Source of the DNA: a bacterium HR33
GTDB taxonomy: Bacteria > Gemmatimonadota > Gemmatimonadetes > Gemmatimonadales > GWC2-71-9
Direction: 5' to 3'
NCBI GenBank assembly: GCA_945889655.1
Contig: CAMDCH010000001.1
Location: 1 to 45,116 of the forward strand
Length of the DNA: 45,116 nucleotides
Under the pieces are notes generated by a model, which saw only the letters and a program-made list of their open reading frames with translations, made no database searches and had not been told where the DNA came from. Below, piece after piece: positions 10,284-45,116 of this stretch. The number at the start of each line of letters is the position of its first letter. The stretch's first letter is position 1. The position numbers were made by a program, and so were the translations under genes.

Positions 10284-10285
10284 CG

Positions 10286-12076: not shown

Positions 12077-12414
12077 GACCCTGATTCCTTCTCCTTGAGC
12101 TGTTTGACGTATTGGTCGAACCGGTCCAGTCGAGCTTCCCACAACTGACGACGCGCGGTCAGCCAGTCTTCAACGACCTTGAACCGTTCGGGCACGATCT
12201 CATACGTCCGCACACGCCCGTGCTTTTTCGACCTCACCAGTCGGCTCTGTTCGAGCACCGCCAGGTGCTGCACAAACGAGGGGAGTTGCATGTCGAATGG
12301 TGCCGCCAGCTCGCTGACTGTGGCTGGTCCGACAGACAGTTGCTCCAGGACCTTCCGCCGAGTCGGGTTGGACAAGGCATAGAAAACACCGTCAGCGACT
12401 GCGGATTGAACCAT
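12073..12414 (-). CDS. ArsR/SmtB-family transcriptional regulator
   Basis: 113 aa. VFYALSNPTRRKVLEQLSVGPATVSELAAPFDMQLPSFVQHLAVLEQSRLVRSKKHGRVRTYEI is a winged-HTH ArsR signature. This is the common arsR-SRPBCC gene pair. Confidence 0.85.
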   Translation of the reverse strand: MVQSAVADGVFYALSNPTRRKVLEQLSVGPATVSELAAPFDMQLPSFVQHLAVLEQSRLVRSKKHGRVRTYEIVPERFKVVEDWLTARRQLWEARLDRFDQYVKQLKEKESGS

Positions 12415-12505
12415 TTCAACACCAGTCGATTGGTTGGGGTGCCCGATCTGACGGAGAGACTATATCGCCGGTCAATACTAAGGTCAAGACATAAGTATTG
12501 TCGCT

Positions 12506-12557
12506 TCCTTGCGCTGGCGCAGCCTGCGCTCGCAGCTTAAGCGCAACTCCGTCAGGC
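12506..12557 (+). repeat. attC right-half relic (site 7)
   Basis: ccttgcgctggcgcagcctgcgctcgcagcttaagcgcaactccGTCAGGC matches the right arm of the family. The R' is degenerate (GTCAGGC) and no left arm is found upstream. Confidence 0.55.
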
Positions 12558-12566
12558 CGCAGGTCA

Positions 12567-12851
12567 ATGCTATTCGTCAAAGCGTTGCGAGAGCGGGTCC
12601 GCAGTGGAGAGATCACCTGTAGCGTTCGGCTTTGGCAGCGGCCGCACGTCAGGGTCGGTGGCCGATACTCCCTGGCACCAGGAGAGATTGTAGTGACGTC
12701 TCTTCTTGAAATGTCCCTGGACGACGTCACCCCTGCACTCGCCCGCCGTTCGGGTTTCTCGGGAGTCGTGGAACTCCTCAAGATCGCCAGGCATGGACGC
12801 GGGCGGCGCGTGTTTCTTGTCGAATTCCGCTACGTGCGAAGAAAACGCTGA
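12567..12851 (+). CDS. Small ASCH/PUA-like protein (tentative)
   Basis: ATG at 12567, 10 nt after the attC relic. 94 aa, MLFVKALRERVRSGEITCSVRLWQRPHVRVGGRY.. loosely resembles ASCH-domain proteins. Confidence 0.4.
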   Translation: MLFVKALRERVRSGEITCSVRLWQRPHVRVGGRYSLAPGEIVVTSLLEMSLDDVTPALARRSGFSGVVELLKIARHGRGRRVFLVEFRYVRRKR

Positions 12852-12884
12852 TGGCTGCGTTGCTCGGCAGCCATCAGTGTTTGT
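12848..12884. terminator. Hairpin between convergent genes (bidirectional terminator-like)
   Basis: Perfect 11-bp stem ctgatggctgc / gcagccatcag with an 8-nt loop, followed by tgtttgt. Confidence 0.5.
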
Positions 12885-12890
12885 CCGCGG

Positions 12891-14171
12891 CTATGGTGCC
12901 ACGTGAGCGAACACGGCGATACAACCCTTGCCCTTCACGTTGAATTGCGCGCACGCCGTGTTATCGGTCGTGGGGTCGGCGATCTGCGCGGCGTTGACCT
13001 GCACGACGGCGAATATGTGATTGTTCTTTTCAAACGCCGTGGGGTTCGTGGCCCCTGGAGCGGGCACATTCTGCAGCCACGTGTTGGTCACCGCATCGAT
13101 AACGCCGAGTGACGTGACGCCAGTGACGGCGTCCGCTCCCGTCACGTAGAAGCGCTTGTCGCCGGGATTGTACCAGGTCTCATTGCCTCCCCCGACCTGG
13201 GTAATGACGGTCAGGACCTTGCCGGTTCTCGCATCCATGATGACCGGCCTGCCGCATCCCGGTATGATCATGTGCCCGTCGGGTCCCAGCGCCGGATCGT
13301 TGATGCCCAGCTGGACGGTGCCGGTGAGCACCCCGCAATCGATCACCCACTTGTCTTCGATGGCCCGCGTCACCGGGTTGATGACCGCGACGTACTGCGG
13401 GCTGACGACGACGCCCCCGACAATCCTTCCGGTCACCGCGGAAAGCAGGCGGCGCGACTCGGGGTTCCACAGCGGCGCTTCCTGGTTGCCGGCACCCTCA
13501 AACGTGACCGTGCCCTGGATCGTATAGGGAGGCACGGCGGAAATGAACGTCGCATAGGGATCGAGGGCCGCATGGGTGCCGCCGACCGCGAGGGGCGCAG
13601 GCGACTGGACGAAGACGAGCTTGTGCTCGGGATCGTAGGTCATTTCGTTGGTGCGTCCACAGTAGCGAGTGGTGGCCGTTCCGCCGTCACACGCCGGGAT
13701 GCTGACGTCGATGGATGCGAGAATCTGCATGGTGTTGTTGTCCACCACGCGCACCATGCTATTGCCGTCCGAGACGAACGACGTGTTGTTCGGGGTGAAC
13801 GTGATGCTGCTGGGTCCGTTGCCGTTGGTGGTGGGGGTGCCGCCCCCGGCCGTCGCGTTCCCCGCGAAGCCGGTCACCCGGCCCAGGTAGGTGTTGTTCT
13901 CGGCATCGATGATGTCCACCCCGGCGTTCGATACGTCCGTCAGATAGTATCGCATGCTGCCGAGGTAGGTGCCGTGCGAGACCTGCGTGGCGTCGACCCA
14001 GGACTTGGTACCGCTGCCGATAGGGTTGCCCGGAACCGTGATCACGGCGATGAGGGCGACCGGGTCGGTCACCTTGGCTGGTGCGTCCCCGTTCTCGAAG
14101 ACCATGCAACCCGGAGAGAGCGCCGTGATGAAGATGAACAGGAAGGCGAGAAATCGCTGAGTAGGCTTCAT
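12891..14171 (-). CDS. Beta-propeller-repeat lipoprotein (YncE-like), unknown function
   Basis: 426 aa. Signal plus lipobox ITALSPGC. Repetitive beta-strand-rich sequence with recurring ..Y.TD....V.VID.. segments. Confidence 0.55.
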   Translation of the reverse strand: MKPTQRFLAFLFIFITALSPGCMVFENGDAPAKVTDPVALIAVITVPGNPIGSGTKSWVDATQVSHGTYLGSMRYYLTDVSNAGVDIIDAENNTYLGRVTGFAGNATAGGGTPTTNGNGPSSITFTPNNTSFVSDGNSMVRVVDNNTMQILASIDVSIPACDGGTATTRYCGRTNEMTYDPEHKLVFVQSPAPLAVGGTHAALDPYATFISAVPPYTIQGTVTFEGAGNQEAPLWNPESRRLLSAVTGRIVGGVVVSPQYVAVINPVTRAIEDKWVIDCGVLTGTVQLGINDPALGPDGHMIIPGCGRPVIMDARTGKVLTVITQVGGGNETWYNPGDKRFYVTGADAVTGVTSLGVIDAVTNTWLQNVPAPGATNPTAFEKNNHIFAVVQVNAAQIADPTTDNTACAQFNVKGKGCIAVFAHVAP

Positions 14172-19973: not shown

Positions 19974-22409
19974 TCAGTCGTACCGCAACGCTACGATGGG
20001 ATCCACGGCCGTGGCCCGTCGTGCCGGTACCCAGCTCGCCGCAAGCGCCACCGCGGCGATGACCAGCGCCACGCCACCAAAGACCAGCGGGTCCCTGGGA
20101 CTTACCCCGAACATGAGCAACCCGATCAGGCGTGAAAGAGCCAACGCCATTCCCAGCCCGATGACGAGGCCGAACCCGGCCTGCCATGCGCCCTGCCGTA
20201 CCACCAGCCTGATGACGTCCCCGGCGCTCGCGCCCAGGGCCATCCGCACCCCCATCTCCCGCAGGCGCCGGCTCACCGAGAACGCGAGCACGCCGTAGAG
20301 GCCCACCGATGCCATGAAAAGCGCGGCCGCGCCAAACACGATGAACACGGTACCAAACACCCTGAAGAACCAGGTCTCCTCCCGCATCGCGCTCTCCATC
20401 GACCGCACATCGAAAACCGGCAGGTCGGGATCCAGCGCACGCACCAGCTCCCGCAGCGTGGGGGCCAGGCGTATGGGGTCCCCCTCCGTGCGGATGGCGA
20501 TCGCCGCACTGCCGCGGTCCAGCTGCGCGAGCGGGTAGTAGTACCGCGCGAGGTTGCCCTGGCCGGGCTCCAGCCCGCGGACCGCAAGCGTGGGTGCCAC
20601 GCCAACGATGGTGAGCCAAGGCCAGGTGCTGGGCGACTTGATGGATCCACCAGGCCGGATCCGACGGCCGATGGGATCAGCGCCGCGGAAGTACAGGCGC
20701 GAAAACTCCTCGTCCACGATCGCGACGCGAGCGCCCCGTTCGTCATCACTCGCGTTGAAGCCGCGACCATTCAACAAGCGAACGCCAAACGTGTCAAAGA
20801 ATCGCGGCGTGATGGCCGTGGACCCCGCCGTCGGGAAGTCGCGGTCAGTGGCGTAGGCCTCGCCCTCGACCGCGACTCGGCCATCCCCGCTGCCACCGGG
20901 CAGCTCGGTGGTGAGCGCCACACCTCCCGCGCCGGGCATCGTGGTGAGGCGCTCTTCCAGCGTCTGCCAGAATCGTCGGCGGGCGACCGAGTCGGGGTAG
21001 CGCGCGTCTATCAGCGCGACCCGCGCCGTAAGTACCTGCCCGGTCTCAAACGGGAAGTCGTAGGTCTCGATCTTCGTGAGACTCTTGACCATGAGGCCGG
21101 CGCCGACCAGCAGCGCGCAGGAGAAGGCCACCTGGGTCACGACCAGCGCGCGACTGATCCGGCCGCCACTCATGCTGGACGCGCCGCGGCTCTCATCCTT
21201 GAGCGTGGCGCCGAGGTTGGCACGGAGCACGTGGAACGCGGGCGCCGCGCCAGCCGCCAGCGTCGTGAGCACGGTGAGCGCGGCGACGAACGCCAGGACC
21301 ACCGGGTTGAGGTCAAAAATCATGTAGTACGGCTTGCCGACATCCTGGGTCGCGCGGTCGAACAGGGTAATCCCGCCGTACGCGATTGCCGTGCCGATCA
21401 CCGCCCCGGCAAAGGCGAGCAGCCCGGTCTCCACGAAGAACGGCAGCACCACCTCGAACCGGGAGGCGCCGACCGCGGTGCGCACCGCCGCCTCACGAAC
21501 CCGGAGCAATGCGCGGGCGAGCACCAGGTTTGCCACGTTGGCACAGGCGATGAGCAGCACGAGGACCGTCGCCACTAACATCGCGGTGAATACCGTGATG
21601 ACCTCGGTCCCGTTGTCATCCTCGACGAACGTCTGGAAGACGGTGGTAACGCCTTCGTTGGTTGCGGGGTATTCCCGGGCCAGCGCCGCGGCGATGCTCT
21701 TCATGTCAGCGTCGGCCTGGTCCCATGTGATGCCGTCCTTGAGTCGTGCGGCGACCTTGACCTGCGGGCCGCCCTCGCGAGTGGGCGTGTTTCCCCGGAG
21801 GTCACGCTGCGCGGTCCAGAGCAACGACTCCTGGGGAAACAGGAATCCCGGCGGCATCACGCCGAGCACGGTGGCCGCGGTGCCGTCGATATAGACAGAG
21901 CGGCCGACGATGGAGGAGTCGCCGCGGTAGCGCGTACTCCAGAGCCAGTGCGAGAGCATCACGGTGAGCGGCGCCCCGGCCTTCTCGTCATCCGGGCTGA
22001 ATCCCGTTCCCAGGATCGGCCGGACACGAAGGACATCAAAGAGAGTGGAGGAGACGCGCGTTCCCTCGTAACGCTCCGGGCCCAGGCTGTCGCGCAGGGA
22101 GACCGTTCCGCCGCCGGTATAGGATCCCATGCCCTCGAAGGAGTGTTGTCGCTCGCGCCAGTCGTAGTAGTCGTGCTGGTTGGCGGCCATGAAGTCCTGG
22201 TTGCGCGAGGGGTTGGAGCGCTGGATCACCCGCACGCGGTCGGCCTCGGGGATCCCCAGCCCCCGGATCATGACTCCGTAGAAAAGCGAGAAGGTGTTCG
22301 TACAGAGACCGATCCCCAGGGCCAGCGTCACCACCGCGACGAGAGCGGAGCCGGGCTCACGGAGCAACGCGCGGAAGCTGAAGCGGATTTCGCGGGCCAG
22401 AGATTGCAT
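19974..22409 (-). CDS. ADOP-family duplicated MacB/FtsX-type ABC permease (orphan, no adjacent ATPase)
   Basis: 811 aa. N-terminus MQSLAREIRFSFRALLREPGSALVAVVTLALGIG and two MacB_PCD plus FtsX halves, typical of the acidobacterial duplicated orphan permease family. Confidence 0.9.
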   Translation of the reverse strand: MQSLAREIRFSFRALLREPGSALVAVVTLALGIGLCTNTFSLFYGVMIRGLGIPEADRVRVIQRSNPSRNQDFMAANQHDYYDWRERQHSFEGMGSYTGGGTVSLRDSLGPERYEGTRVSSTLFDVLRVRPILGTGFSPDDEKAGAPLTVMLSHWLWSTRYRGDSSIVGRSVYIDGTAATVLGVMPPGFLFPQESLLWTAQRDLRGNTPTREGGPQVKVAARLKDGITWDQADADMKSIAAALAREYPATNEGVTTVFQTFVEDDNGTEVITVFTAMLVATVLVLLIACANVANLVLARALLRVREAAVRTAVGASRFEVVLPFFVETGLLAFAGAVIGTAIAYGGITLFDRATQDVGKPYYMIFDLNPVVLAFVAALTVLTTLAAGAAPAFHVLRANLGATLKDESRGASSMSGGRISRALVVTQVAFSCALLVGAGLMVKSLTKIETYDFPFETGQVLTARVALIDARYPDSVARRRFWQTLEERLTTMPGAGGVALTTELPGGSGDGRVAVEGEAYATDRDFPTAGSTAITPRFFDTFGVRLLNGRGFNASDDERGARVAIVDEEFSRLYFRGADPIGRRIRPGGSIKSPSTWPWLTIVGVAPTLAVRGLEPGQGNLARYYYPLAQLDRGSAAIAIRTEGDPIRLAPTLRELVRALDPDLPVFDVRSMESAMREETWFFRVFGTVFIVFGAAALFMASVGLYGVLAFSVSRRLREMGVRMALGASAGDVIRLVVRQGAWQAGFGLVIGLGMALALSRLIGLLMFGVSPRDPLVFGGVALVIAAVALAASWVPARRATAVDPIVALRYD

Positions 22410-34338: not shown

Positions 34339-34971
34339 GTGACGAGCCTGACCCCGTGCATCTACCCGATGATTCCGATCACCGCCGGGCTTCTCGCCGG
34401 CGCCAACCGCGAGAACCCTTCGCGGGCCCGCACCGTCGGTCTCACGCTCACGTACGTCCTGGGGCTTTCGCTGTTCTACGCGTTCCTGGGCGTGCTGGCG
34501 GGGATGACCGGCCAGCTCTTCGGAACGGTGAGCGCCTCATGGTGGGCGCGGCTACTCACCGCCAACCTGCTGCTCTTCTTCGGGCTCGCGATGCTCGATG
34601 TCTTTCCGCTGACTGCGCCGCAACGCCTGCTCCAGTGGGCCGGCGGACTCGGCGGGGGCTCGTATCCCGCGGTCTTCCTGCTCGGCGCTACCTCGGGCAT
34701 CGTGGCGGCACCGTGCGGCGCGCCAGCGTTCGGCGTAGTGCTGACCTGGGTTGCCGGGACCCATAGTGCCGTACTGGGGTTCATTTACCTGTTCGTTTTC
34801 TCGCTCGGCATGAGCGCCATTCTCGTCCTTGTCGGGCTGTCCTCCGGAACGCTCGCGGCGTTGCCGCGATCCGGGATGTGGATGGTCAGGACCAAGAAGG
34901 TCGCGGGCATCCTGATGCTGGTGATGGCGGAGTACTATCTCGTACAGGCGGGACTGGTTTGGCCGTGGTGA
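34339..34971 (+). CDS. ccdA: Cytochrome c biogenesis / thiol-disulfide transporter CcdA (DsbD-family TM domain)
   Basis: SLTPCIYPMIPIT and ..APCGAPAF.. are the two conserved Cys-Pro helices. The first canonical start (GTG at 34339) sits only 5 codons before the first Cys. The open frame continues upstream to 34207 with a plausible TM segment (NPLLAVATLFGAGLV) but no ATG/GTG/TTG. Confidence 0.75.
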   Translation: MTSLTPCIYPMIPITAGLLAGANRENPSRARTVGLTLTYVLGLSLFYAFLGVLAGMTGQLFGTVSASWWARLLTANLLLFFGLAMLDVFPLTAPQRLLQWAGGLGGGSYPAVFLLGATSGIVAAPCGAPAFGVVLTWVAGTHSAVLGFIYLFVFSLGMSAILVLVGLSSGTLAALPRSGMWMVRTKKVAGILMLVMAEYYLVQAGLVWPW

Positions 34972-35021
34972 GGTGCGAGGTGCGAGATGCGAGATGCGAG
35001 GTGCGAGGTGCGAGGTGCGTA
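34966..35021 (+). repeat. Tandem heptamer array (GTGCGAG/ATGCGAG)x6-7, starting inside the ccdA stop codon
   Basis: gtgcgag gtgcgag atgcgag atgcgag gtgcgag gtgcgag gtgcgta read directly from the sequence. There is no complementary arm nearby. Confidence 0.85.
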
Positions 35022-35053
35022 GACTACAGAACCGGGAACAAGGTGGAGATACT

Positions 35054-35560
35054 GTGAGCCGGATCGGTGCTGTTGTACTCGCGGTGACGATGGCGTTGTT
35101 GGTTTCGACGCCCGCGGTCGCTCAGGAAGAGGAGATGGGGATCGCGCTGGGCGCCACGCCCTCGTCTCCAATTGCGGTGACCGACCTCGACGGCCAGGCG
35201 GTCGATCTCTCTTCCTATGTCGGCAGGAAGCCCTTGCTGGTGGAGTTCTGGGCTACCTGGTGTCCCATCTGCGAGGCGTTGCTCCCACGCGTTATCGCAG
35301 CACACAAGGTCTACGGTGACAAGGTGGACTTCATCGTGGTCGGTGTGGGCGTCAACGAAACTCCCGCTTCGATCAGGCGACATCTGGCGCGCCACCCGAT
35401 GCCGTTCAAGATGTTCTTCGATGGGAAGGGTGCGGCGGTGCGCGCCTTCGAAGCGCCGCAGACGTCGTACGTGGTCGTGCTCGATGGGAAGGGCAAGGCG
35501 GTCTACACCGGGCTGGGCAGTGACCAGGACATCAGCGCAGCGGTGAAGAAGGCCCTTTAG
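35054..35560 (+). CDS. TlpA/ResA-like periplasmic thiol-disulfide oxidoreductase
   Basis: GTG at 35054 after aggtggag. Signal peptide and thioredoxin motif VEFWATWCPICEAL. Confidence 0.85.
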   Translation: MSRIGAVVLAVTMALLVSTPAVAQEEEMGIALGATPSSPIAVTDLDGQAVDLSSYVGRKPLLVEFWATWCPICEALLPRVIAAHKVYGDKVDFIVVGVGVNETPASIRRHLARHPMPFKMFFDGKGAAVRAFEAPQTSYVVVLDGKGKAVYTGLGSDQDISAAVKKAL

Positions 35561-35667: not shown

Positions 35668-38097
35668 TCAATCCGCGTTGAGGGCTACCACCGGATCGAC
35701 CCTCGCCACGCGTCGAGCGGGCAGGAAGCTTGCCAGGATCCCGGTCAGGGCCAGCGATCCCACCACCAATCCGAACACGAGCGGGTCCCGCGCGTTGACC
35801 TGGAACAGCACCATCTGGAGCGGGGCACTGGCGATCGCGGCTAGCCCTAAGCCCAGCACGAGACCAAGCCCCAGCTGAAGCATCCCGCGCTTCATGACCA
35901 AACCAACCAGCCCCTGCGGCTTGGCACCTAGCGCCAGGCGGATACCCATCTCCTGCGTGCGCCGCGCGACCGCGAATGACATCACCCCGTACAGGCCCAC
36001 CGCGGCAAGAAAGAGCGCCACGAATCCAAAGATCATGAAGAGCACGCCGAATATCCGGTAGAACCAGGTCTGCTGGGCGATGACGCCGTCCATGGTGAGG
36101 ACGTTGAAGATCGCGAGGTTGGGGTCGAGCGAGACGACCGCACCGCGGATGGCTTCCACCATCGACAGCGGCGGGCCCGAGGTGCGGACGGCGATACTGA
36201 CAAAGTTGCCGACGCCGCTCTGGGAGATGGGGATGTAGAAGCCGGCCGGGCTCTGGTTGTTGTTCCCGATGCCTTCCATGCGCATGTCAGGCACAACGCC
36301 GATCACCGTGAGCCACTTGGCCGTAGTGTCGCGCCGGTTCATTCGGAACCGGCGGCCCATGGGGTCCAGGCCGGGGAAGAAGTTCTTCGCGAACGTCTCG
36401 TTGATCACCGCCACCGGCTGGTCCTTGGAGCCGTCCCGGTCGGTGAACACGCGGCCGCTGCGGATCTGCACGTCGAACGTGCTGAAGTACCCGGGCGTCA
36501 CGATGCCTTCGCGCGCGCTTGGATAGTCGCGGTCTTCCGCGTACGTCTTTCCTTCGACCTCGAACACGCGGGCGCCGTTGCCCGAGGCGGGCAGACCGTC
36601 GGAAAGCGTGGCGCCCACGATCCCCGGAAGAGTCGCGAGCCTCGGCTGGAGCTGATCGTAGAAGCGCAGTCGGCTGGCAGTGTCGGGATACTCGACCTCT
36701 GGCAGGTTGATCCGTGCCGTGAGGATGCCGGATGTCTCGAACGGCAGGTTCACGTCCCGCAGCTGCGCGACGCTCTTGATCATGAGCCCCGATGCGATGA
36801 GCAGCCCACACGACAGGGTGACCTCGGCCACGACGAGGAACCCGGTGAATTTCCCGATGTGGAGGCCCGATGATCCCCGGCTCTCATCCTTGAGAACTTC
36901 TCCCACGGCCATTCCGGTTGCTTGCAGCGCCGGGATGACGCCCGCGACAATCGCGGAGAGCAGCGTGACGGCAGCGACGAAGAGCAGGACGCTGCGGTCG
37001 GGAGTGAAGTCCATCCAGAAGGGCGGCGGATTGCTGGCCAGCGCCCGGTTGAACAGCGCCACGCCCGCATAGCCAAGGGCGGTGCCGATCGCGGCCCCAC
37101 CCAGGGAGAGGACCAGGACTTCCGATACCATCTGCGTGACGATTCGCATGCGGCTCGCACCCAGCGCGGTGCGGACGGCGACCTCGCGCATCCGGACCGA
37201 GGTTCGGGCCAGGAGCAGGTTCGCCACGTTGAAACAGGCAATGAGCAGCACGCCGATGACGGCGCCCAGCATGGTGTAGAGCAGCGGGAAAATCTGCGCG
37301 CCCAGGATCCGCCGCATGTAGGGCTCGACGCTCGCGGTGAGGTCCTTGTTGGTCTCGGGCCAGGCCTGGGCTGCGCGGCTGGCGAAGACGGCAAAGGCAG
37401 CCTGCGTCTGGTCCATCGAAACGCCGGGTTTGCGCTTTCCCACGCCGACGATCCCCGGCCCGGTCCCGCGCGCGTACTTGCCGGGGTCCACGACCATCGG
37501 CGCCCAGACCTGGTGGTTCACCGGGAAGCCGAACTTGGGCGGCATAACGCCGACGATGGTGCGGACGCCGCCGTTCACCCTCACGGTTTTTCCGATCACC
37601 GCGGGAGAGCCGGCGAACTGGTTCCGCCAGACGTCGTAGCCGAGGATCAGGATCTGGTCGGCGCCGGGCTTGTCGTCCCCTTCGCGGAAGACCCGGCCGT
37701 GGATGGCTTCGACACCGAGGATGCGGAAGACATTGGCGGTGAGGAACGCACCCTGGTAGCGCTCCGGCCGGCCGGCCTCTGACGAGAGGTTCACGGCCCA
37801 GCTATCCCACGCGCCCATCTCCTCCAGCACGGTCTGCTGCTCGCGCCACTCGGCGAAATCGTGGACCGAGAGGTCCATGTTCTGGATGTTCTGGGACGGG
37901 TTGGCCCGGCCGACCGATACGATCCGGTCCGCGCCCGGGAACGGCAGCCCGCGCAGGATGGCCCCGTTCACGATGGAGAAGATCGTCGTGCAGAGGCCGA
38001 TGCCGATGCTCAGGGTCAGGACGGTGATGAGGGAGAGGCCCGGATTCTTGACGAGCATCCGGAATCCGTATCGCAGGTCCTGGAGCAGGGCAGCCAT
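35668..38097 (-). CDS. ADOP-family duplicated MacB/FtsX-type ABC permease (second copy)
   Basis: 809 aa. MAALLQDLRYGFRMLVKNPGLSLITVLTLSIGIG N-terminus, with the same architecture as 19974..22409. Confidence 0.9.
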   Translation of the reverse strand: MAALLQDLRYGFRMLVKNPGLSLITVLTLSIGIGLCTTIFSIVNGAILRGLPFPGADRIVSVGRANPSQNIQNMDLSVHDFAEWREQQTVLEEMGAWDSWAVNLSSEAGRPERYQGAFLTANVFRILGVEAIHGRVFREGDDKPGADQILILGYDVWRNQFAGSPAVIGKTVRVNGGVRTIVGVMPPKFGFPVNHQVWAPMVVDPGKYARGTGPGIVGVGKRKPGVSMDQTQAAFAVFASRAAQAWPETNKDLTASVEPYMRRILGAQIFPLLYTMLGAVIGVLLIACFNVANLLLARTSVRMREVAVRTALGASRMRIVTQMVSEVLVLSLGGAAIGTALGYAGVALFNRALASNPPPFWMDFTPDRSVLLFVAAVTLLSAIVAGVIPALQATGMAVGEVLKDESRGSSGLHIGKFTGFLVVAEVTLSCGLLIASGLMIKSVAQLRDVNLPFETSGILTARINLPEVEYPDTASRLRFYDQLQPRLATLPGIVGATLSDGLPASGNGARVFEVEGKTYAEDRDYPSAREGIVTPGYFSTFDVQIRSGRVFTDRDGSKDQPVAVINETFAKNFFPGLDPMGRRFRMNRRDTTAKWLTVIGVVPDMRMEGIGNNNQSPAGFYIPISQSGVGNFVSIAVRTSGPPLSMVEAIRGAVVSLDPNLAIFNVLTMDGVIAQQTWFYRIFGVLFMIFGFVALFLAAVGLYGVMSFAVARRTQEMGIRLALGAKPQGLVGLVMKRGMLQLGLGLVLGLGLAAIASAPLQMVLFQVNARDPLVFGLVVGSLALTGILASFLPARRVARVDPVVALNAD

Positions 38098-38100: not shown

Positions 38101-38199
38101 CGCCTTGGGTGCGAGGTGCGAGGTGCGAGGTGCGAGGTGCGAGGTGCAGCGTGCACCGTCTCTATGCGGGCCTTACGACCGGGGCGGGGCGGGGTTTCA
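38101..38199 (+). repeat. Repeat element copy 1: CGCCTTGG, (GTGCGAG)5 and a conserved ~55-bp G-rich tail
   Basis: cgccttgg(gtgcgag)x5 gtgcagc gtgcaccgtctctatgcgggccttacgaccggggcggggcggggtttca. It is homologous along its full length to 39091-39186 and begins 3 nt upstream of the ADOP start codon. Confidence 0.85.
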
Positions 38200-38317: not shown

Positions 38318-38728
38318 TCAGGTTCTGGCCGCGCCCTCCTGAGATTCGACCCCGGCGGCGGGTGCCGGCCCCGCATCCACGAGTCGTTTGAGGCGGGGCT
38401 CGACACGAAAGTTCAGCCCTTCGAGGGTGCGGCTCCCGAGCAGGGTCATGTCGCCCGGGTGCGCAAAGACCACTTCGTCCCCCACGCCTTTGCCGGCCAC
38501 ATGGATCACGACGGTGCCGGTCCAGCGCGAGAGGATCGAGCCGTCGGCTTGGCGGAAGCGTTCCTCGTTCCGCCGCGCGATGCCGAGTGATTCGAGCACC
38601 ACGCCCGGGATCCAGGACAATTCGGCGCCGGTATCCACCAGCACGTTCTCAATCACCCGGCGCTGACCGGGGAGCGCCGGGTTTTCGATCTCGACATCAA
38701 CGCGGAATGTGCCCATTTCGTCGGTCAT
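38318..38728 (-). CDS. Retropepsin-like (clan AA) aspartic protease
   Basis: Start MTDEMGTFRVDV at 38728. Catalytic LVDTGAE motif and ..LLGSRTLEGL.. flap/dimer region typical of bacterial retropepsin-like proteins. Confidence 0.7.
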   Translation of the reverse strand: MTDEMGTFRVDVEIENPALPGQRRVIENVLVDTGAELSWIPGVVLESLGIARRNEERFRQADGSILSRWTGTVVIHVAGKGVGDEVVFAHPGDMTLLGSRTLEGLNFRVEPRLKRLVDAGPAPAAGVESQEGAART

Positions 38729-38842
38729 CGTAGCTCCTGAAGGCTCGCCGAGTAGTACCCCATTTATGCGGTGAGTGTCAATGCAGCGCGGGACGGCTCG
38801 TACCCTCGCCCCTGATGCAGCCAAATCCTATCTTAGGGCGCC

Positions 38843-39090
38843 GTGGAACCCCCCCTTGAGCGCCTGAAGGCCGCCTTCGCCGACCGTTACGCCCTCGAGC
38901 GCGAGCTCGGGCGGGGTGGTATGGCCACGGTCTATCTCGCCCAGGATCTGAAGCTCAAGCGGAAAGTCGCGATCAAGGTATTCAGCCCCGAGGTGGCCGC
39001 GGCGATCGGCCCCGATCGTTTCTTGCGCGAAATCGAGATCCTCGCGCACCTCAATCATCCTCGCATCGTGACCCTGATCGACTCCGGCAC
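38843..39090 (+). pseudogene. Ser/Thr protein kinase, N-terminal ~80 aa only (truncated by repeat element copy 2)
   Basis: YALERELGRGGMATVYLAQDLKLKRKVAIKVF (Gly-loop plus VAIK lysine) ..RFLREIEILAHLNHPRIVTLIDSG. The sequence then runs directly into cgccttgg(gtgcgag)n. The catalytic loop, DFG and APE regions are absent. Confidence 0.75.
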
Positions 39091-39186
39091 CGCCTTGGGT
39101 GCGAGGTGCGAGGTGCGAGGTGCAAGGTGCGTGGGACAGTGTGCACCGTCTATGCGCGCCTTACGACGGGGCGGGGTGGGGTTTCA
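39091..39186 (+). repeat. Repeat element copy 2: CGCCTTGG, (GTGCGAG)3 and the conserved tail
   Basis: cgccttgg(gtgcgag)x3 gtgcaag gtgcgtg ggacagt gtgcaccgtctatgcgcgccttacgacggggcggggtggggtttca. Confidence 0.85.
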
Positions 39187-39193
39187 AAAGACA

Positions 39194-39295
39194 AAGTGAG
39201 AAGTGAGAAGTAAGAAGGCGCTGCGGGATGAGATTCGATCTCTCCCCCACAGCGCCTTCTTGTCCTTCTTACTTCTCACTTCTCACTTCTTACTT
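39194..39295. repeat. Tandem-heptamer-armed palindrome H3
   Basis: The left arm is aagtgaga agtgaga agtaaga. The core is aggcgctgcggg..cccacagcgcct. The right arm is tcttgtccttcttac ttctcac ttctcac ttcttac. It overlaps the stop codon of the gene at 39294. Confidence 0.85.
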
Positions 39296-39860
39296 ATTTC
39301 GCGCTCGCCTTTGCCACCGCCTCTTTCAGTTCGTCGTAAGCTGCGGGGTCCACTTCCCTGAACGGCGTCGCCCGGTAGGCGATTCTTCCGTCCGGTCCGA
39401 CCACGAACAGGTTCCGGTTGTCCGACTTGTTCCGGATCGCTCCGTACGCGGTGCCGACCTTCTGGTCGGTATCGCTGGCGAAGAGAAACTGGAACTGGTC
39501 ATCCCTCGCCCACGCCGCCAGCGTGTCTGCCGCGTCTACACTGATGCCGATGAGAACGACGTCCTGCCCATCCTTGAAGATCTGTGCGTACTGATCACGG
39601 TACGCATGCATTTGGATAGTTCAGCCACGCGTTCGGGCCCGGAAGAAGAACGCCAGGACAACCGTCTTCCCCTTGTAGTCACTCAGGTGGATCTGGTCGC
39701 GCAGCACGCCGAAGCGCGTGGCGCCTGGCAGGGCAAAATCGGGAGCGACCGCCCCGAGTTCGAGAGGCGGGGCCGTGACCGGCGCCGCAGCCGCCTGGGC
39801 GTCCAGCCTGCTCGCGGCTAGCACCGCGACCGTTACGAGCGCGAGCATCATCTTGCGCAT
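39294..39860 (-). CDS. Exported BCP/AhpC-TSA-type peroxiredoxin with in-frame TGA at the peroxidatic Cys position (candidate selenoprotein, otherwise a nonsense pseudogene)
   Basis: The ATG at 39860 is preceded by aaggagg and overlaps the stop of the upstream paralog. A single 188-codon frame is interrupted only by the TGA at 39621-39623. Aligned to the paralog: FFPKARTRG-C-TIQMHSYRDQY versus FFFRARTRG-TGA-TIQMHAYRDQY. A 7-bp hairpin lies 14 nt downstream of the TGA (39585-39606). Confidence 0.5.
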
Positions 39861-39861
39861 G

Positions 39862-40470
39862 TCAGCCTCCTTTTGCGGGATCCGCGGGGGCCGGTGCCAG
39901 CTTCTCCAGTACGGCCGCGAGATCCACGTACGACGTGGGATCGACTTCACGGAATGGAATCATCTTGTGCGCGATCTTGCCTTCCTTGTCGATTACGAAG
40001 AGCATGCGTGATGCCGTCGGCCGGCCGGCGTTGGCGCCGTAAGCCTTGGCGGTCGTCAGTGGACCCGCTGCATCGCTCGCCATGAGGAACTGGAACTGGT
40101 CGTCCTTCGCCCACGCCGCCAGCGTATCCGCGGGATCAACGCTGATGGCGATCAGGACGATGTCCTGGCCGGCGTGAAAGAGCTTGGAGTACTGGTCGCG
40201 GTACGAGTGCATTTGGATCGTGCAGCCGCGGGTCCGCGCCTTGGGGAAGAAAGCCAGGATCACCGTCTTGCCGCGGAAATCGCTGAGCTTGACGGGATTC
40301 TGGAGTACGCCGTAGCGCGTCGCCGCCGGAAGGGTGAAGTCCGGCGCCATGGTCCCGATCTCGGGAGTCACCGGTGGCGCAGGCGCGGGGGCCACGGCAG
40401 CCGGCTGCTGCGCCGAGAGGGACGTGGTGACGGCGAGCGCCAGCAGAGAACCAACGAACAGTTTTTTCAT
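39862..40470 (-). CDS. Exported BCP/AhpC-TSA-type peroxiredoxin (Cys form)
   Basis: 202 aa. Signal MKKLFVGSLLALAVTTSLSAQ. APDFTLPA..., KTVILAFFPKARTRGCTIQM is the PxxxTxxC-type Prx motif. Confidence 0.85.
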   Translation of the reverse strand: MKKLFVGSLLALAVTTSLSAQQPAAVAPAPAPPVTPEIGTMAPDFTLPAATRYGVLQNPVKLSDFRGKTVILAFFPKARTRGCTIQMHSYRDQYSKLFHAGQDIVLIAISVDPADTLAAWAKDDQFQFLMASDAAGPLTTAKAYGANAGRPTASRMLFVIDKEGKIAHKMIPFREVDPTSYVDLAAVLEKLAPAPADPAKGG

Positions 40471-40525
40471 GACCGCTCCTGAACTCTGGGAGGATATCTG
40501 ATTATACGCCGCGCGCGCGGCAGCG

Positions 40526-41227
40526 TCAGGGCTCGGCGCGGACGAGCTTCATTCCCGGTGTGACGACCTGTGCCACCTGGTGGTCGCTCTTCCCCACGTA
40601 GTACCGAACCGTGCTGCGGCCCAGCGTGACGTTCGTGACCCAGGTGTCCGTACCTTTGACGACCTCGGATCCTGAGACGGCCACGTCCATCGGTATCGGG
40701 CCGCCTGCCTCATAGATGTAGACCATGACCCGGCCGGTGTATCCGGCGGCGAGCGGGAGCGCGCCGATGAGGACGTCGAGCATGTTCGAATCGAACATCT
40801 CCTGCTTGATCTCCTGGTTCACCGGCCGCGGGTGACCGGCGTCGTTGAGCTCGCCGGTCACGCGGGTCTTATCGAAATCGATGCGTAGCTCGCGGTGTGC
40901 CGAGTAGGAGCTGTGGTGCCGGGGAGTGAGCGTGGCCGCGTCGGCGATGGCCGAGTCGAGGATGATGCCGGTGGGCCCCGAGATGCTCTGGATGCGGATG
41001 ATCGCGGGCTGGCCCTGGGCGTCGCGGCCCTTCACGACCTGGTCGTCGAGCACTCCGAGCGTGTCGCCCTGGATGGAAACCATCCGGAAGACGTGATGGT
41101 ATGGGCTCACCTGTGTCGCCTGCAGCTTCGCGAGCGGAGGCGGTGGTGCGGGAGGAGCCATGCTGGGAGCCTGCGCACCGAGCGGCGCTGCGATCAGCAC
41201 CGTGAGTATCAGCGGCTGTTTCAGCAT
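40526..41227 (-). CDS. Secreted hypothetical protein
   Basis: 233 aa. Signal MLKQPLILTVLIAAPLGAQA. Its start lies 2 nt after the stop of the molybdoenzyme gene. Confidence 0.5.
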   Translation of the reverse strand: MLKQPLILTVLIAAPLGAQAPSMAPPAPPPPLAKLQATQVSPYHHVFRMVSIQGDTLGVLDDQVVKGRDAQGQPAIIRIQSISGPTGIILDSAIADAATLTPRHHSSYSAHRELRIDFDKTRVTGELNDAGHPRPVNQEIKQEMFDSNMLDVLIGALPLAAGYTGRVMVYIYEAGGPIPMDVAVSGSEVVKGTDTWVTNVTLGRSTVRYYVGKSDHQVAQVVTPGMKLVRAEP

Positions 41228-41229
41228 TT

Positions 41230-44058
41230 TCAGCGTCCTTCGTGTCTCAGGTTGTACGCATCTCTCGTCGGGCGCAACGGACGGAGCAGCCAGTAGGGCC
41301 GCCGGGTGCCGTCAGGGCCGGGGGCAGGGCGCGCCATCGCCAGCCACTGCTTGTAAATCTCGTGAGACTTGGCTGTATCTGCATAGATGTCAGCTTCACG
41401 GTCGCTCTCCGCGGCGCGCTCTACCCGAACGGCTTGGTGCCACGCATGCTGGCCGGAGATGGGATCGGGGTGCACCGGGAACGTGAGGTTCTGGTGTACG
41501 CCTGCGTCGTGCCACCAGACGCGGGAAGAATCCGGGTCCTTTGACGCCCACGGTTCTACCCCGTATTCACGGCGCATTAGCCAGCCGGTCCCGGACCGCT
41601 CGAGGCGCACCTTGGCCGAAGCCCATCGGTCGGTGTTTTCATCCTCGGTCGTCCGCCAGCGGCCCATGTGGTGCGAGCAGGCGACCACGCCCGGCTGGAT
41701 TCCCTCGGTGACCCACGCGCGGGTGACGAAGTAGCCGATCTCCGTGGTGACGCGAAGCAGGTCCCCGGTGTCCGCGCCGATCCGCGCTGCATCGCCGGGG
41801 CTCAGCCAGAGCGGGTTCGAGTGCGCGATTTCGTTCAGCCATTTTGCGTTCCCGGTGCGCGTATGTACCAGGACTGGAAGCCGGAACGTGGGCACGAGGC
41901 ACATCTCGCCACGCGCGGCGTCCAGCTTCCGGGGCGCCACGTGGCTCGGCTCGTACGTCGGGATGGCGTACTCGGGCCACCCCCACTCGGCGAGCGTGGG
42001 CGAATAGAACTCGAGTTTCCCGCTCGGCGTGGCGAACCCGCGGCGCACCACGCCGTCCACCACGACCCCAGCATGGCGCCGGCCTGACGCATCGCCTTGC
42101 GGCAGGGGGCGCGGTGCCACGTTCGGGTCAGCGGCGGCAGGGGCGCTCGAAAAGACCGTGCCTGTAATTGGCGCAACCACAACGTCCTTCAGCTCCGCTT
42201 CGGGAACCTGCTCCTCATACGCCCGGTAGGGCTGCGTAGCGATTTCGAAGGCACCAACCCGCCGCATGTACTCGAGCGCGGGGAGGCCCTCCTTCGCGGC
42301 CGCCTCGGGGAGACCGGGCACGGCGTGTTCGAAGATCCACCGGTAGTACTCGTCAATCGTGATCTTCTCGCCCGCGCGCCAGGGTGACTCGAAGTGCTTG
42401 CGAATGCCCAGCGCCCCGTCGGGATCAATGCGCCACGATAGCTCGATCCAGAACTCGTTCTCTTCCCACACCTCGCCCGGATTCACCTCGCGCGTGTCGC
42501 TGATCTTGTGACCGCGGCGCTCCTCGAACGCGCGCTTCACCGGCTGGCGGAAGCCGAGCCACTGCGCGGCGTGCGTCTCATAGGAGTGGAGGTCGTGCCG
42601 CTCACCGCCCAGGCCCATCGGGAGGACATAGTCTGCCAGCCACGCCGTCTCGCTCCACACGGGCGTGAGCGCCGCGTGGCAGCCAATCAGCGATTCATCC
42701 TGGAGAACGTCGATCCAGGTAAATCCGTCGGGGTTGGTCCACACCGGGTTGTAGACCCGGGTGAAATACATCGCCAGCTTGCCGCGGCCTTCCTTGAGGA
42801 AGTGCGGCAGCAGGAACGACATCTCGAAGAACGCGAGCGGGTATTCCTTCGGCCACGTCAGCTCGTTCCACTTGTCCGGGTGCGCCGGCATCGTGTGGTG
42901 GCGGGGCACGAACTTGTTGGTGCGATTCGGGATCGTGCCGCCAGGCGTGCCAACGCTGCCGGTGAGCACGTTGAGAAAAAAGATTGTCCGCGCGGTCATC
43001 CAGCCGTGGAGACCGCCGGCCGATGAGGCGCGCCAGTTATGCGCCGCGAGCGCGGCGCCCGCCGTAGCTATGATGCGCGCCATCTCCACGATCGAAGCCG
43101 CAGAAACACCAGACTCCGCTGACGCAAACTCTGGCGTATAGCTCTCGTAGAGCCGTTCGAGCTCCTGTTCGAACGCGTCGAATGTGGGCTCACGTTCGGG
43201 GTGGATGGTGCGGAGGTACTGCTCCCAGTTCACCCAGCGGCGCACGAACTCCCGGTCGTAGCGCCGCTCGCGAATCAGGATGTTCGCCACCGCGAGCAGG
43301 ACCGCGGGCTCACTCCCCGGTCGCGTGGGCAGCCAGAGGTCGGCGTGCGTGGCGGTATTGGAGAGCCGCGGATCGAGTACGATGATCTTCGCGCCCGACG
43401 TCTTGCCTTCCATGATCCGCTGCGCGTGCGGGTTGAAGTAGTGGCCGCTCTCGAGATGCGCGCTGATCAGCAGGATGACGCGGGCATTGGCGTAGTCGGG
43501 GCTGGGGCGGTCGGTTCCCATCCAGAAGGCGTAGCCGGCGCGCGCGCCCGACGAGCAGATGTTGGTGTGCGAGTTGTGGCCGTCCACGCCCCACGCGGCG
43601 AGCACGCGCTCCGTGAAGCCGTCTTCGCCTGGCCGGCCGACGTGATACATGACCTCGTTCCGGCGGTCTTCGAGGATCGCCTGGCGGATGCGGCTCGCCA
43701 TGTCGTCGAGCGCCGAGTCCCATGTGACACGTTGCCATGTGCCGCCGCCCCGTTTGCCCACCCGCTTCATCGGGTAGAGGATGCGCTCGGGATCGTTGGT
43801 CTGATTGATGGTGGCAGGACCCTTGGCGCAGTTGCGGCCGCGGCTGCCCGGGTGGAGCGGGTTGCCCTCGAACTTCCGGATCTCGCCGGTCTCCTTGTCC
43901 ACGTACGCCAGGAGACCGCACGCCGATTCGCAGTTGAAGCAGGTGGTGGGGTGCAGTGAGTAGTGGTGCTCTTCCCGTTTCGGCCACGCGCGCGAATCCA
44001 GCTCCACCACGTCGTCCCACTTCTCGCGGGGTGGGTAGGGCGCGAGGCCGGGTTGCAT
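41230..44058 (-). CDS. Molybdopterin (bis-MGD) oxidoreductase catalytic subunit, DMSO-reductase superfamily; no Tat signal seen
   Basis: Probable start MQPGLAPY at 44058; the longer ORF from 44154 reads through a repeat hairpin. N-terminal 4Fe-4S motif CFNCESACGL..(x26)..C AKG. Large MopB-type body and a C-terminal molydopterin dinucleotide-binding-like region (..LWLSPGDAARIGADTGDLLRVTT..G.....A.VTEGI.PGVV). Confidence 0.85.
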   Translation of the reverse strand: MQPGLAPYPPREKWDDVVELDSRAWPKREEHHYSLHPTTCFNCESACGLLAYVDKETGEIRKFEGNPLHPGSRGRNCAKGPATINQTNDPERILYPMKRVGKRGGGTWQRVTWDSALDDMASRIRQAILEDRRNEVMYHVGRPGEDGFTERVLAAWGVDGHNSHTNICSSGARAGYAFWMGTDRPSPDYANARVILLISAHLESGHYFNPHAQRIMEGKTSGAKIIVLDPRLSNTATHADLWLPTRPGSEPAVLLAVANILIRERRYDREFVRRWVNWEQYLRTIHPEREPTFDAFEQELERLYESYTPEFASAESGVSAASIVEMARIIATAGAALAAHNWRASSAGGLHGWMTARTIFFLNVLTGSVGTPGGTIPNRTNKFVPRHHTMPAHPDKWNELTWPKEYPLAFFEMSFLLPHFLKEGRGKLAMYFTRVYNPVWTNPDGFTWIDVLQDESLIGCHAALTPVWSETAWLADYVLPMGLGGERHDLHSYETHAAQWLGFRQPVKRAFEERRGHKISDTREVNPGEVWEENEFWIELSWRIDPDGALGIRKHFESPWRAGEKITIDEYYRWIFEHAVPGLPEAAAKEGLPALEYMRRVGAFEIATQPYRAYEEQVPEAELKDVVVAPITGTVFSSAPAAADPNVAPRPLPQGDASGRRHAGVVVDGVVRRGFATPSGKLEFYSPTLAEWGWPEYAIPTYEPSHVAPRKLDAARGEMCLVPTFRLPVLVHTRTGNAKWLNEIAHSNPLWLSPGDAARIGADTGDLLRVTTEIGYFVTRAWVTEGIQPGVVACSHHMGRWRTTEDENTDRWASAKVRLERSGTGWLMRREYGVEPWASKDPDSSRVWWHDAGVHQNLTFPVHPDPISGQHAWHQAVRVERAAESDREADIYADTAKSHEIYKQWLAMARPAPGPDGTRRPYWLLRPLRPTRDAYNLRHEGR

Positions 44059-44095
44059 GGGGGGCTTGGGGTCGGCGCTCACGAGAAGCTCCGGC

Positions 44096-44170
44096 GGTGC
44101 TCGGTTCTCGGTTCTCGGTGCTCGATTGACTCCGGAGCAGCGAACACCGAGCACCGAGCACCGAAAACCG
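44096..44170. repeat. Tandem-heptamer-armed palindrome H4 ((GGTKCTC)n / (CACCGAG)n), intercistronic
   Basis: The left arm is ggtgctc ggttctc ggttctc ggtgctc. The loop is gattgactccggagcagcgaa. The right arm is caccgag caccgag caccgaa aaccg. It lies between the NrfD-like stop (44174-44176) and the molybdoenzyme start. Confidence 0.8.
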
Positions 44171-44173
44171 TAT

Positions 44174-45116
44174 TCATGAAATCGGTACCGATTGTCCCGA
44201 CATCACGAACGCGTGCTCGTATCCGAGCAATCCGGCAAGCGCGAGAATGGCCGCGAAGGGTTCGACGGTCACCGAGCCGAAGAGGAGTATGGTGAGCGGG
44301 ACGAGCATCCCCCCGACCACCGAGAGCCAGAACAGCCCGGCGTAACGGCCTCTCAGCATGACCCGCGCGGCGGCGGCGGCGTTGGCCGACGAGTGGCGCG
44401 TGCCTACCTCTCCCACCATCAGAGCCAGCAGGTGCGCCCCCACCGACCACGCGAGCGCGCCGGCGAGGTACGACGCCTCGGCGCGGGTTCTTGGCAGGAA
44501 CGTGGCCGCGAGGAGCAGGATCCCGCTGCCCGCAATCACCATCTGAAACGCGAGCTGGATGCCGACGAGGGGACTCTGCCAGAGGTCGCGCGCTTCACAC
44601 TGCCCGAACAGGAACGCGGTGTAGACCGCCGTCCCGAGTGCGAGGACGCACACGGCAGCGGCAAAGCCCGGGTTCGGGGTGCTCCCCCGCATCGCTGCCA
44701 GCAGCCAGATGAACAGGACGGCGCCGTACGCCGTGATGATGAAGGCGCCGCGGGTGAGCCACGAGCGCCACTGCGGCTTGATGAGAATGAACCAGAAGCG
44801 AGCCGGCCGCTTGAGGTCCGCGATCAGCAGCACGCCGGTGGCGAGCAGCGCGATCATGGCGAGCGCGGGCGCGAGCGTGGTGAAGATGCCGCCGGTCGAG
44901 ACGCCCAGCAGCATCGGTGCGGCCGCGACAAACGCGATCCCCGCCGCAAGCGACTTGGTCCAGAGATAGGCCGAGACCTTCCAGCGCCAGGTGATGGGGT
45001 GGGAGACGTCGTAGGCAACACGGGCGTCGGGTTGGCGGGTTGGCGGGTTGGCGGGTTTTCCAGTACCACCCGCCTGCCCGCCCCCCCACCTACCCGCCGC
45101 GTTGTCCGTCGCCGTT
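44174..45116 (-). CDS. NrfD/PsrC-like polytopic membrane subunit (5' end beyond the window)
   Basis: LIADLKRPARFWFILIKPQWRSWLTRGAFIITAYG is the NrfD-family loop motif. The frame stays open upstream of the first ATG (44914) through ..HPITWRWKVSAYLWTKSLAAGIAFVAAAP (the expected first TM) to the window edge, with no ATG/GTG/TTG. Confidence 0.7.
   Translation of the reverse strand, partial: TATDNAAGRWGGGQAGGTGKPANPPTRQPDARVAYDVSHPITWRWKVSAYLWTKSLAAGIAFVAAAPMLLGVSTGGIFTTLAPALAMIALLATGVLLIADLKRPARFWFILIKPQWRSWLTRGAFIITAYGAVLFIWLLAAMRGSTPNPGFAAAVCVLALGTAVYTAFLFGQCEARDLWQSPLVGIQLAFQMVIAGSGILLLAATFLPRTRAEASYLAGALAWSVGAHLLALMVGEVGTRHSSANAAAAARVMLRGRYAGLFWLSVVGGMLVPLTILLFGSVTVEPFAAILALAGLLGYEHAFVMSGQSVPIS
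45026..45099. repeat. Tandem-octamer-armed palindrome H5 ((GGCGGGTT)x4, loop, (ACCCGCCN)-like x4)
   Basis: The left arm is gtcgggtt ggcgggtt ggcgggtt ggcgggtt. The loop is ttccagtacc. The right arm is acccgcct gcccgccc ccccacct acccgccg. The arms pair imperfectly over about 30 nt. The element lies inside the open NrfD-like frame. Confidence 0.75.

Follow-up and report, generated by a model that had tools for sequence, protein, structure and literature searches.

We analysed a 45,116-nucleotide stretch of DNA (the window) that comprises positions 1 to 45,116 of contig CAMDCH010000001.1 in the assembly GCA_945889655.1 of bacterium HR33, a member of the Gemmatimonadota. Judged from its sequence, a TGA located within a peroxiredoxin gene on the minus strand (39621-39623; UGA on the mRNA) very probably encodes selenocysteine (Sec) in a predicted exported 1-Sec enzyme of the BCP-like type. 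The reading is directly supported by a conserved TGA in the place of the catalytic codon, by purifying selection to either side of it, by a conserved and covarying hairpin on the mRNA and by a conserved gene neighbourhood. The first-pass annotation of the window had taken the gene for a selenoprotein gene and not a dead gene, and comparison with orthologs bears this out: the TGA is kept in 160 of 160 loci, the ratio of nonsynonymous to synonymous substitution rates (dN/dS) is 0.13 on one side of it and 0.07 on the other, and the hairpin is conserved.

Two genes of the AhpC/TSA family (PF00578) lie in tandem on the minus strand over positions 39294-40470. The upstream gene (39862-40470) encodes a Cys-containing protein, and the downstream gene (39294-39860) is the one that carries the TGA. 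Their products match the Pfam model with 96.6 and 92.7 bits, respectively (U read as C in the latter), against a gathering score of 26. The TGA gene is a single 188-codon frame whose sole internal stop is the TGA at 39621-39623. The stop codon of the Cys paralog (TGA, 39862-39864) sits between the GGAGG ribosome-binding site of the Sec gene (39866-39870), which falls within the last codons of the paralog, and the ATG of the Sec gene (39858-39860). BLASTP aligns the two proteins over 154 residues with 60% identity and places the TGA opposite the paralog's single Cys (ARTRG-C-TIQMH versus ARTRG-TGA-TIQMH). This layout had been described in the first-pass annotation, and the tandem of BCP-type genes, the overlap of the first stop with the start region of the second gene, the continuous frame and the divergence of the paralogs around an aligned catalytic residue were all recovered here; export, also part of that description, is suggested for the product of the TGA gene by a signal-peptide-like pattern. 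The protein encoded by the TGA gene contains no Cys elsewhere and would, therefore, be a 1-Sec enzyme. A MEGAHIT contig from ENA and a Logan contig, two further assemblies of this sequence, have the same TGA, although the three assemblies may derive from the same reads or sample. Annotation splits the window gene into an N-terminal open reading frame (ORF) of 79-109 residues and a C-terminal ORF of 105 residues (P0061).

Used as a database query with U read as C, the whole frame retrieved full-length Cys proteins with up to 69% identity. When the 105 residues that follow the stop were used as the query, all of the 120 matches listed were ORFs of 105-130 residues with 55-82% identity, mostly from Gemmatimonadota, and many were named as proteins of Gemmatimonadetes or Gemmatimonadales metagenome-assembled genomes. 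The C-terminal ORFs that were aligned (28 of 28) start at the same Met, that of MHAYRDQYA, and a start shared by many genomes implies a stop at the same place in each of them. The DNA of orthologs was fetched with the motif MHAYRDQY, taken from the alignment of these C-terminal fragments. Among metagenome contigs, over 600 matches to the pattern were obtained, of which 459 were confirmed and the best 80 kept; contigs representing one genome per species gave 183 confirmed loci, of which the best 80 were again kept. A TGA is found 12 nt upstream of the ATG of MHAYRDQY in 80 of 80 metagenome loci and in 80 of 80 species-genome loci, and never TAA, TAG or a sense codon. The peroxiredoxin frame carries on upstream of the TGA (GKTVVLAFF[FY][RK]AR[TS][RK]G-TGA-T[IV]QMH), and tblastn with the Cys paralog gives a single segment that runs straight across the stop. 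In 112 close Cys homologs, the peroxidatic Cys occupies the position of the TGA. The genome loci belong almost without exception to Gemmatimonadota, including Gemmatimonadales, Longimicrobiales, Candidatus Kutchimonas and the closed chromosome CP070812.1, together with a few bins that are otherwise labelled. Three carriers of the Sec gene (L092, L122 and L124) are binned as Rokubacteria, Vicinamibacterales and Chloroflexi; they are either mis-binned Gemmatimonadota contigs or instances of lateral spread.

Five seemingly full-length database proteins display Trp or Leu at the catalytic column, and the DNA of two of them was examined. The Trp of P0007 (locus L163, 301-873) was discarded as a sense variant, as it corresponds to a TGA translated with another code in a Joint Genome Institute (JGI) gene call. 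The Leu of P0003 (locus L164, 101-664) was likewise set aside; it corresponds to a TTA in an ENA contig of 1.6x coverage that was found by protein search and that keeps an intact hairpin, and the TTA is probably a read error. The conservation of the TGA among orthologs, which the first-pass annotation had put forward as a check, is thus complete in the 160 motif-fetched loci, with a TTA in this one additional homolog. Two proteins (P0109 and P0119) contain Trp at the catalytic column and ME or LE in place of MH.

These comparisons bear on the possibility that the gene is dead or an artefact, that is, that a nonsense mutation or sequencing error has interrupted a duplicated peroxiredoxin while the Cys paralog does the work. 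The position of the Cys paralog directly upstream and the fact that annotation pipelines call fragments only are compatible with such a scenario, and the TTA of the 1.6x contig indicates that errors or polymorphisms occur at this codon. However, the TGA is identical in three assemblies and is the only codon found in 160 loci of different species, none of which contains the scattered stops or frameshifts that the first-pass annotation had anticipated for a decaying gene. Selection is strong on both sides of the codon (dN/dS 0.07-0.13), and the synonymous divergence (dS), which exceeds 1, excludes that the orthologs are assembly copies of one source. The Sec gene stands alone in the other genomes, where no adjacent Cys paralog exists. 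The ortholog comparison effectively refutes a dead gene or artefact, to which we give practically no credence.

The view of the two genes as a Sec/Cys paralog pair, put forward in the first-pass annotation, stands with regard to the Sec reading of the TGA gene, but not in the sense of a recent duplicate pair. A recent tandem duplication was rejected on the basis of the 60% identity, the grouping of the paralog with Cys forms and the absence of the tandem elsewhere: a Cys paralog next to the Sec gene was found in 0 of the 160 other loci and is peculiar to the window genome. A crude tree built by the unweighted pair group method with arithmetic mean on p-distances leaves the monophyly of the Sec forms undecided, and some Cys forms differ from a Sec form by as little as 16.5%.

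Selection was estimated by the method of Nei and Gojobori, comparing the window gene with 60 distinct orthologs. The dN/dS values are 0.13 over the 45 codons that precede the TGA and 0.07 over the 46 codons that follow it, with a dS of about 1.1-1.3, so that purifying selection holds on either side, in line with what the first-pass annotation had expected of a functional gene. The three codons that separate the TGA from the Met vary in a synonymous or conservative manner (ACG/ACC/ACA/ACT; ATC/ATT/GTC/GTT/GTG; CAA/CAG). These codons change as coding sequence does, which implies that they are translated.

This observation is of importance in evaluating a split gene, in which a 79-residue N-terminal product would be followed by a restart at the ATG 9 nt downstream of the TGA, the two halves forming a Cys-less thioredoxin-fold protein and the hairpin serving for coupling or mRNA stability. 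In nearly all orthologs the ATG (Met-83) is indeed placed three codons past the TGA, and the downstream ORF is called by gene callers. Against this, the pattern of change in the three codons between the TGA and the ATG (Thr ACN; Ile/Val; Gln CAR) is that of coding sequence, and there is no Shine-Dalgarno sequence before the ATG. Met-83 is also shared by the Cys forms and is replaced by Val (GTG) within the same peptide context in one ortholog, indicating that it is a residue of the family and not a start. Moreover, the stop is always TGA and never TAA or TAG, and the break would fall exactly at the catalytic residue, leaving an enzyme devoid of its nucleophile yet under strong purifying selection. 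A split gene is accordingly very improbable, and a Sec codon within one continuous frame remains the preferred interpretation.

The mRNA contains a SECIS-like (selenocysteine insertion sequence) hairpin at 39585-39606, UGCGUAC-CGUGAUCA-GUACGCA, in which a 7-bp stem (39600-39606 paired with 39585-39591) is capped by the 8-nt loop CGUGAUCA (39592-39599). It is present in both the minimum free energy and the centroid structures obtained by folding 67 nt from the UGA. The hairpin starts 14 nt and its loop 21 nt after the UGA, the second position of the loop is a G, and the Cys paralog is able to form only four of the seven pairs at the equivalent place. The folding thus agrees in every one of these respects with the hairpin proposed in the first-pass annotation. 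The 21-nt distance between the UGA and the loop lies, we presume, inside the range accepted by bSECISearch. An A/U lower stem, which had been considered possible, was rejected, as the RNAalifold consensus consists of the 7-bp stem only.

The consensus, calculated from 50 distinct 60-nt segments, contains exactly one helix, formed by columns 18-24 with 33-39 around an 8-nt loop. In these segments, 99.7% of the cells are paired, a value that no shuffle or slide attains. The closing pair is UA in 36 segments and CG in 13; in 133 distinct sequences it is U-A in 84, C-G in 45, U-G in 1 and mismatched in 3. The two bases that covary occupy the third positions of a His (CAU/CAC) and an Ala (GCA/GCG) codon, so that the switch is compensated within the RNA and leaves the protein unaltered. 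The loop is CGUGAUCA in 129 of the 133 distinct sequences. The six codons of the hairpin (GCG UAC CGU GAU CAG UAC) have a third-position entropy of 0.04 bit, compared with an average of 1.05 bit in the flanks, and the codons CGT and GAT, fixed in the Sec forms, are mostly CGC and GAC in the Cys-form homologs. The decisive control is provided by four Cys homologs with the identical peptide MHAYRDQYA, which use GCC, TAT, CGC, GAC and other codons and have lost the perfect stem: the constraint on the nucleotides is tied to the TGA and not to the peptide. The conservation of the hairpin among orthologs, a further check raised in the first-pass annotation, thus consists of one compensatory pair and frozen synonymous sites that Cys homologs of the same peptide do not keep. 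Bacterial SECIS elements have been described as hairpins that directly follow the UGA and whose apical loop is small and includes a G (PMC1088965), and the conserved stem-loop found here 3' of the UGA, with its small G-containing loop, has this form.

The closest solved structures to the TGA-gene protein are archaeal BCP/PrxQ enzymes (PDB codes 2ywn, 3hjp and 2cx3), to which it aligns from end to end. In all three, it is the peroxidatic Cys that lines up with the Sec, and the Thr and Arg columns of the active site are conserved. The protein is BCP-like and belongs to neither the Bcp nor the PrxU equivalog: it scores 64.4 bits against the Bcp equivalog NF006960 (cutoff 140) and 47.2 bits against the PrxU selenoperoxiredoxin equivalog NF040737 (cutoff 270), and no NCBIfam model reaches its cutoff. 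Of the PxxxTxxC(U) motif and the conserved Arg that goes with it, the window gene has Thr, Sec and Arg (NRN) in place, and the Pro is replaced by Phe. This position, residue -7 from the Sec codon (39642-39644), is Pro in 111 of the 112 Cys homologs, and is Phe, Tyr, Ile or His, never Pro, in 31 distinct Sec-form motifs. The loss of the Pro may thus be coupled to the use of selenium. Sec enzymes of this kind have been described as PxxxTxxU in a 2026 review (PMC13188914), a description from which the present clade, lacking the Pro, departs. At the N-terminus, the sequence MRKMMLALVTVAVLAASRLDA|QA (39798-39860, minus strand) resembles a signal peptide, with a putative cleavage site placed by eye, and the 30 orthologs inspected display the same n-h-c pattern with AxA|Q. 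We infer a signal peptide of the Sec (secretory) pathway in the window protein and in the inspected orthologs.

Synteny was counted in the 108 loci that have at least 1.8 kb of downstream sequence. In 89 of them, genes for a TlpA-like thioredoxin and a CcdA/DsbD_TM transporter adjoin the Sec gene in convergent orientation, starting about 400 nt and 900 nt after the TGA, respectively. The window holds both genes, about 3.7 kb from the Sec gene. The ccdA gene (34339-34971, plus strand; PF02683, 140.9 bits) encodes a CcdA/DsbD-type membrane thiol-disulfide electron transporter, which is the proposed upstream source of electrons. The tlpA-like gene (34973-35560, plus strand) encodes a predicted exported thioredoxin that gives Redoxin, AhpC-TSA and Thioredoxin matches and clusters with the CxxC-containing TlpA-like neighbours of the other loci; it is the proposed direct reductant of the Sec peroxiredoxin, and its true start is probably downstream of the heptad repeats described below.

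The exported-type peroxiredoxin is thus encoded together with a TlpA-like thioredoxin and a DsbD-family transporter, the gene set of an envelope pathway, and the signal peptide, along with the ccdA/tlpA-like adjacency in 89 of 108 loci, suggests a periplasmic selenoperoxidase. In the mechanism that we propose, the hairpin would act as the SECIS and recruit SelB-GTP-Sec-tRNASec while the UGA occupies the A site, and the finished protein would be exported by means of its signal peptide. In the envelope, the selenolate would reduce peroxides and be converted to a selenenic acid, an intermediate that the neighbouring TlpA-like thioredoxin would recycle. Electrons would pass from cytoplasmic thioredoxin to CcdA, from there to the TlpA-like protein and finally to the Sec peroxiredoxin, as the synteny suggests. 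SelB dependence, the incorporation of selenium, export and the electron path are thus predictions of the gene sequences and their arrangement.

Several observations weigh against this interpretation. The loci were picked by a motif taken from truncated ORFs, so that the figure of 160 of 160 describes the Sec clade and not the whole family. The folding energy of the hairpin is unremarkable in the single window sequence (z = -1.0), and its significance must, therefore, come from the ortholog comparison; there, only one pair covaries, the other six being invariant and uninformative on pairing either way. Neither a SECIS nor a tRNA-Sec family was matched in Rfam searches of the window at the gathering threshold and of 39200-40500 at E values up to 10, the sole matches being chance miRNA-like ones to the inverted repeat at 39194-39288. 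With ARAGORN, the window yielded no tRNA and the full set of loci 12 tRNAs, none of them tRNA-Sec, and tblastn with the E. coli SelA, SelB and SelD proteins gave nothing either in the window or across the related loci (1.45 Mb in total, each of 20 kb at most). The decoding machinery (selA, selB, selD and tRNA-Sec) is assumed for the carriers of the Sec gene. Export and the partnership with TlpA and CcdA, as predicted here, draw on a sequence pattern and on synteny. Finally, no open-access paper or supplement was found that links Gemmatimonadetes, Gemmatimonadota or Gemmatimonas to the use of selenocysteine or to sel genes.

The lack of Sec machinery in the window and in the 1.45 Mb of loci also favours an alternative in which the UGA is decoded as one of the standard amino acids (Trp, Gly or Cys), without selenium, by means of a reassigned code, a suppressor tRNA or near-cognate decoding stimulated by the hairpin. 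The JGI gene call that assigned Trp to an orthologous TGA points in the same direction. By contrast, TGA is the ordinary stop of 21 of the 36 other genes predicted in the window, which implies that the genetic code has not been reassigned. With Trp or Gly as its peroxidatic residue the enzyme would be inactive, whereas the Thr and Arg of the active site are conserved, and Cys could be encoded by a plain TGC or TGT, as it is in many Cys homologs. The position, the spacing and the G-containing loop of the hairpin fit an element of the SelB type (PMC1088965). A standard amino acid at this codon is, on these grounds, unlikely, and insertion of selenocysteine is the reading we retain. In the loci, no conserved gene with an in-frame TGA was found besides the Sec peroxiredoxin gene, and a search for the hairpin revealed no other gene that carries it.

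Both peroxiredoxins containing Sec and bacterial SECIS elements within the reading frame belong to textbook knowledge. The SECIS elements of E. coli fdhF and fdnG, known from the work of the Bock laboratory, are SelB-binding hairpins located in the coding sequence 3' of the UGA, their apical loop carrying a conserved G. The window hairpin resembles them in being an in-frame stem-loop that lies directly 3' of the UGA and has a G in the apical loop, but it is unrelated in sequence, and its perfect 7-bp helix, which closes an 8-nt loop, lacks a bulged U; it would represent a candidate ligand of SelB. Because Sec peroxiredoxins of the TxxU type are already established, the gene described here, in all likelihood a genuine selenoprotein gene, falls within a known type and is not a new mechanism or principle.

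The TxxU selenoproteins of the Bcp type (COG1225/PF00578) have been catalogued since 2001-2005 (PMC1088965, PMC5029168, PMC13188914), beginning with PrxU of Eubacterium acidaminophilum, a Sec peroxiredoxin with a TxxU motif (Sohling et al. 2001, cited by PMC13188914). A 2016 survey detected the family in 78 organisms (PMC5029168), and the 2026 review also lists it (PMC13188914). The window protein shares with these enzymes the AhpC/TSA fold, Sec in place of the peroxidatic Cys in TxxU, a hairpin just 3' of the UGA whose loop contains a G, widespread Cys homologs and a gene that is misannotated as truncated. It falls outside the PrxU equivalog (47 versus 270 bits), and its clade differs from the known enzymes in the lack of the active-site Pro, the predicted signal peptide, the ccdA/tlpA-like synteny and the host phylum, Gemmatimonadota, which appears in no open-access selenoproteome paper searched. 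The best matches in sequence and structure databases are BCP/PrxQ proteins (E. coli Bcp, NF006960; 2ywn, 2cx3, 3hjp), whose catalytic Cys, Thr and Arg columns correspond to those of the window protein. The latter differs in having Sec for Cys, no resolving Cys, Phe for Pro, a predicted secreted location and a score below the Bcp cutoff.

An envelope pathway of peroxide reduction that proceeds from ScsB through TlpA to PprX is experimentally known in Caulobacter crescentus (PMC3322552). By analogy, the presence of an exported peroxiredoxin gene beside genes for a TlpA-like thioredoxin and a DsbD-family transporter may follow the same logic of peroxide scavenging in the envelope. The likeness is one of gene content; the transporter here is of the minimal CcdA type (about 210-240 residues, DsbD_TM only), not ScsB, and the peroxidase would be a Sec enzyme.

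The Cys paralog (39862-40470, minus strand) is predicted to be a 202-residue exported 1-Cys BCP-like peroxiredoxin with a canonical PxxxTxxC motif (FFPKARTRGC), and its closest relatives are Cys forms (P0099, P0102). A sigma-70-like promoter match, CTGACG-17-TATAAT, is located upstream of it (40501-40529, minus strand); this is a consensus match, with 0.1 expected by chance. The Cys paralog and the Sec gene may form a bicistronic unit. A perfect 25-bp inverted repeat (39194-39288; arms 39194-39218 and 39264-39288), located 6 nt past the stop of the Sec gene and followed by a T-rich tract, probably marks the end of the transcript, although a strict terminator scan did not call it. The repeat consists of AAGTGAG-type units, contains a nested 16-bp repeat and gives rise to spurious miRNA-like matches in Rfam.

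The separation of the Sec gene from the ccdA/tlpA-like pair by 3.7 kb of sequence punctuated by repeats is found in the window genome only. The interval is occupied by a MacB/FtsX permease gene, a retropepsin-like ORF, a kinase fragment and (GGTGCGA)n arrays. The permease (35668-38097, minus strand) is paralogous to a second MacB_PCD/FtsX permease of the window (19974-22409, minus strand), each comprising about 810 residues. The aspartyl-protease ORF of the retropepsin type (38318-38824, minus strand) scores below the Pfam gathering threshold, and the kinase gene (38843-39199, plus strand) is a truncated Ser/Thr kinase N-terminus that covers the first 66 or so positions of the Pkinase model and runs into heptad repeats; both look like remnants. 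The GGTGCGA heptad arrays lie on the plus strand at 34965-35020, 38108-38149 and 39098-39132 (13 matches compared with 0.01 expected). A direct repeat of about 100 nt (38101-38196 and 39091-39184), 81-88% identical, brackets about 1 kb of the interval. The arrays and the direct repeat may be scars of recombination or insertion.

Upstream of the peroxiredoxin genes, the region 40526-44914 (minus strand) encodes a DUF3108 protein, a 974-residue molybdopterin oxidoreductase and an NrfD-type membrane subunit, which together resemble a polysulfide/thiosulfate-reductase-like module. On inspection by eye, the oxidoreductase seems to contain Cys at the position that is Sec in formate dehydrogenases. 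Farther away, the segment from about 6000 to 13000 has a GC content of 0.59-0.63, compared with 0.65-0.72 elsewhere, and none of its ORFs passed a filter on GC content at third codon positions; it may be foreign or non-coding DNA.

The Gemmatimonadota are a largely aerobic phylum of soil and sediment, and abundant in soil. The traits proper to their Sec peroxiredoxin are its occurrence in at least 183 species, the [F/Y]xxxTxxU motif, the predicted signal peptide, the CcdA/TlpA synteny, a near-invariant SECIS-like hairpin and systematic misannotation. More tentatively, and with rather more doubt than confidence, it can be proposed that at least 183 species of Gemmatimonadota maintain the whole Sec apparatus mainly or only for the sake of a single secreted selenoperoxidase with a remodelled active site, wired to a CcdA/TlpA envelope pathway. 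If this is true, it would represent a phylum-wide use of selenium in the envelope that annotation has missed entirely, and would run counter to the view, stated in PMC13188914, that selenoproteins are rarely retained by aerobic bacteria.

In the Gemmatimonadota records seen, the gene is cut in two, the product being a "redoxin domain-containing protein" of about 108 residues, and a relative is present in at least 183 species genomes. No NCBIfam model covers the protein, and a dedicated one would repair the split records. The coincidence of the change from Cys to Sec with that from Pro to Phe or Tyr represents a natural experiment on the remodelling of an active site with the use of selenium, and the almost invariant SECIS would provide a clean substrate for the study of SelB recognition outside model organisms. 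As a whole, the finding points to a selenium-dependent peroxide defence in the envelope of an abundant soil phylum.

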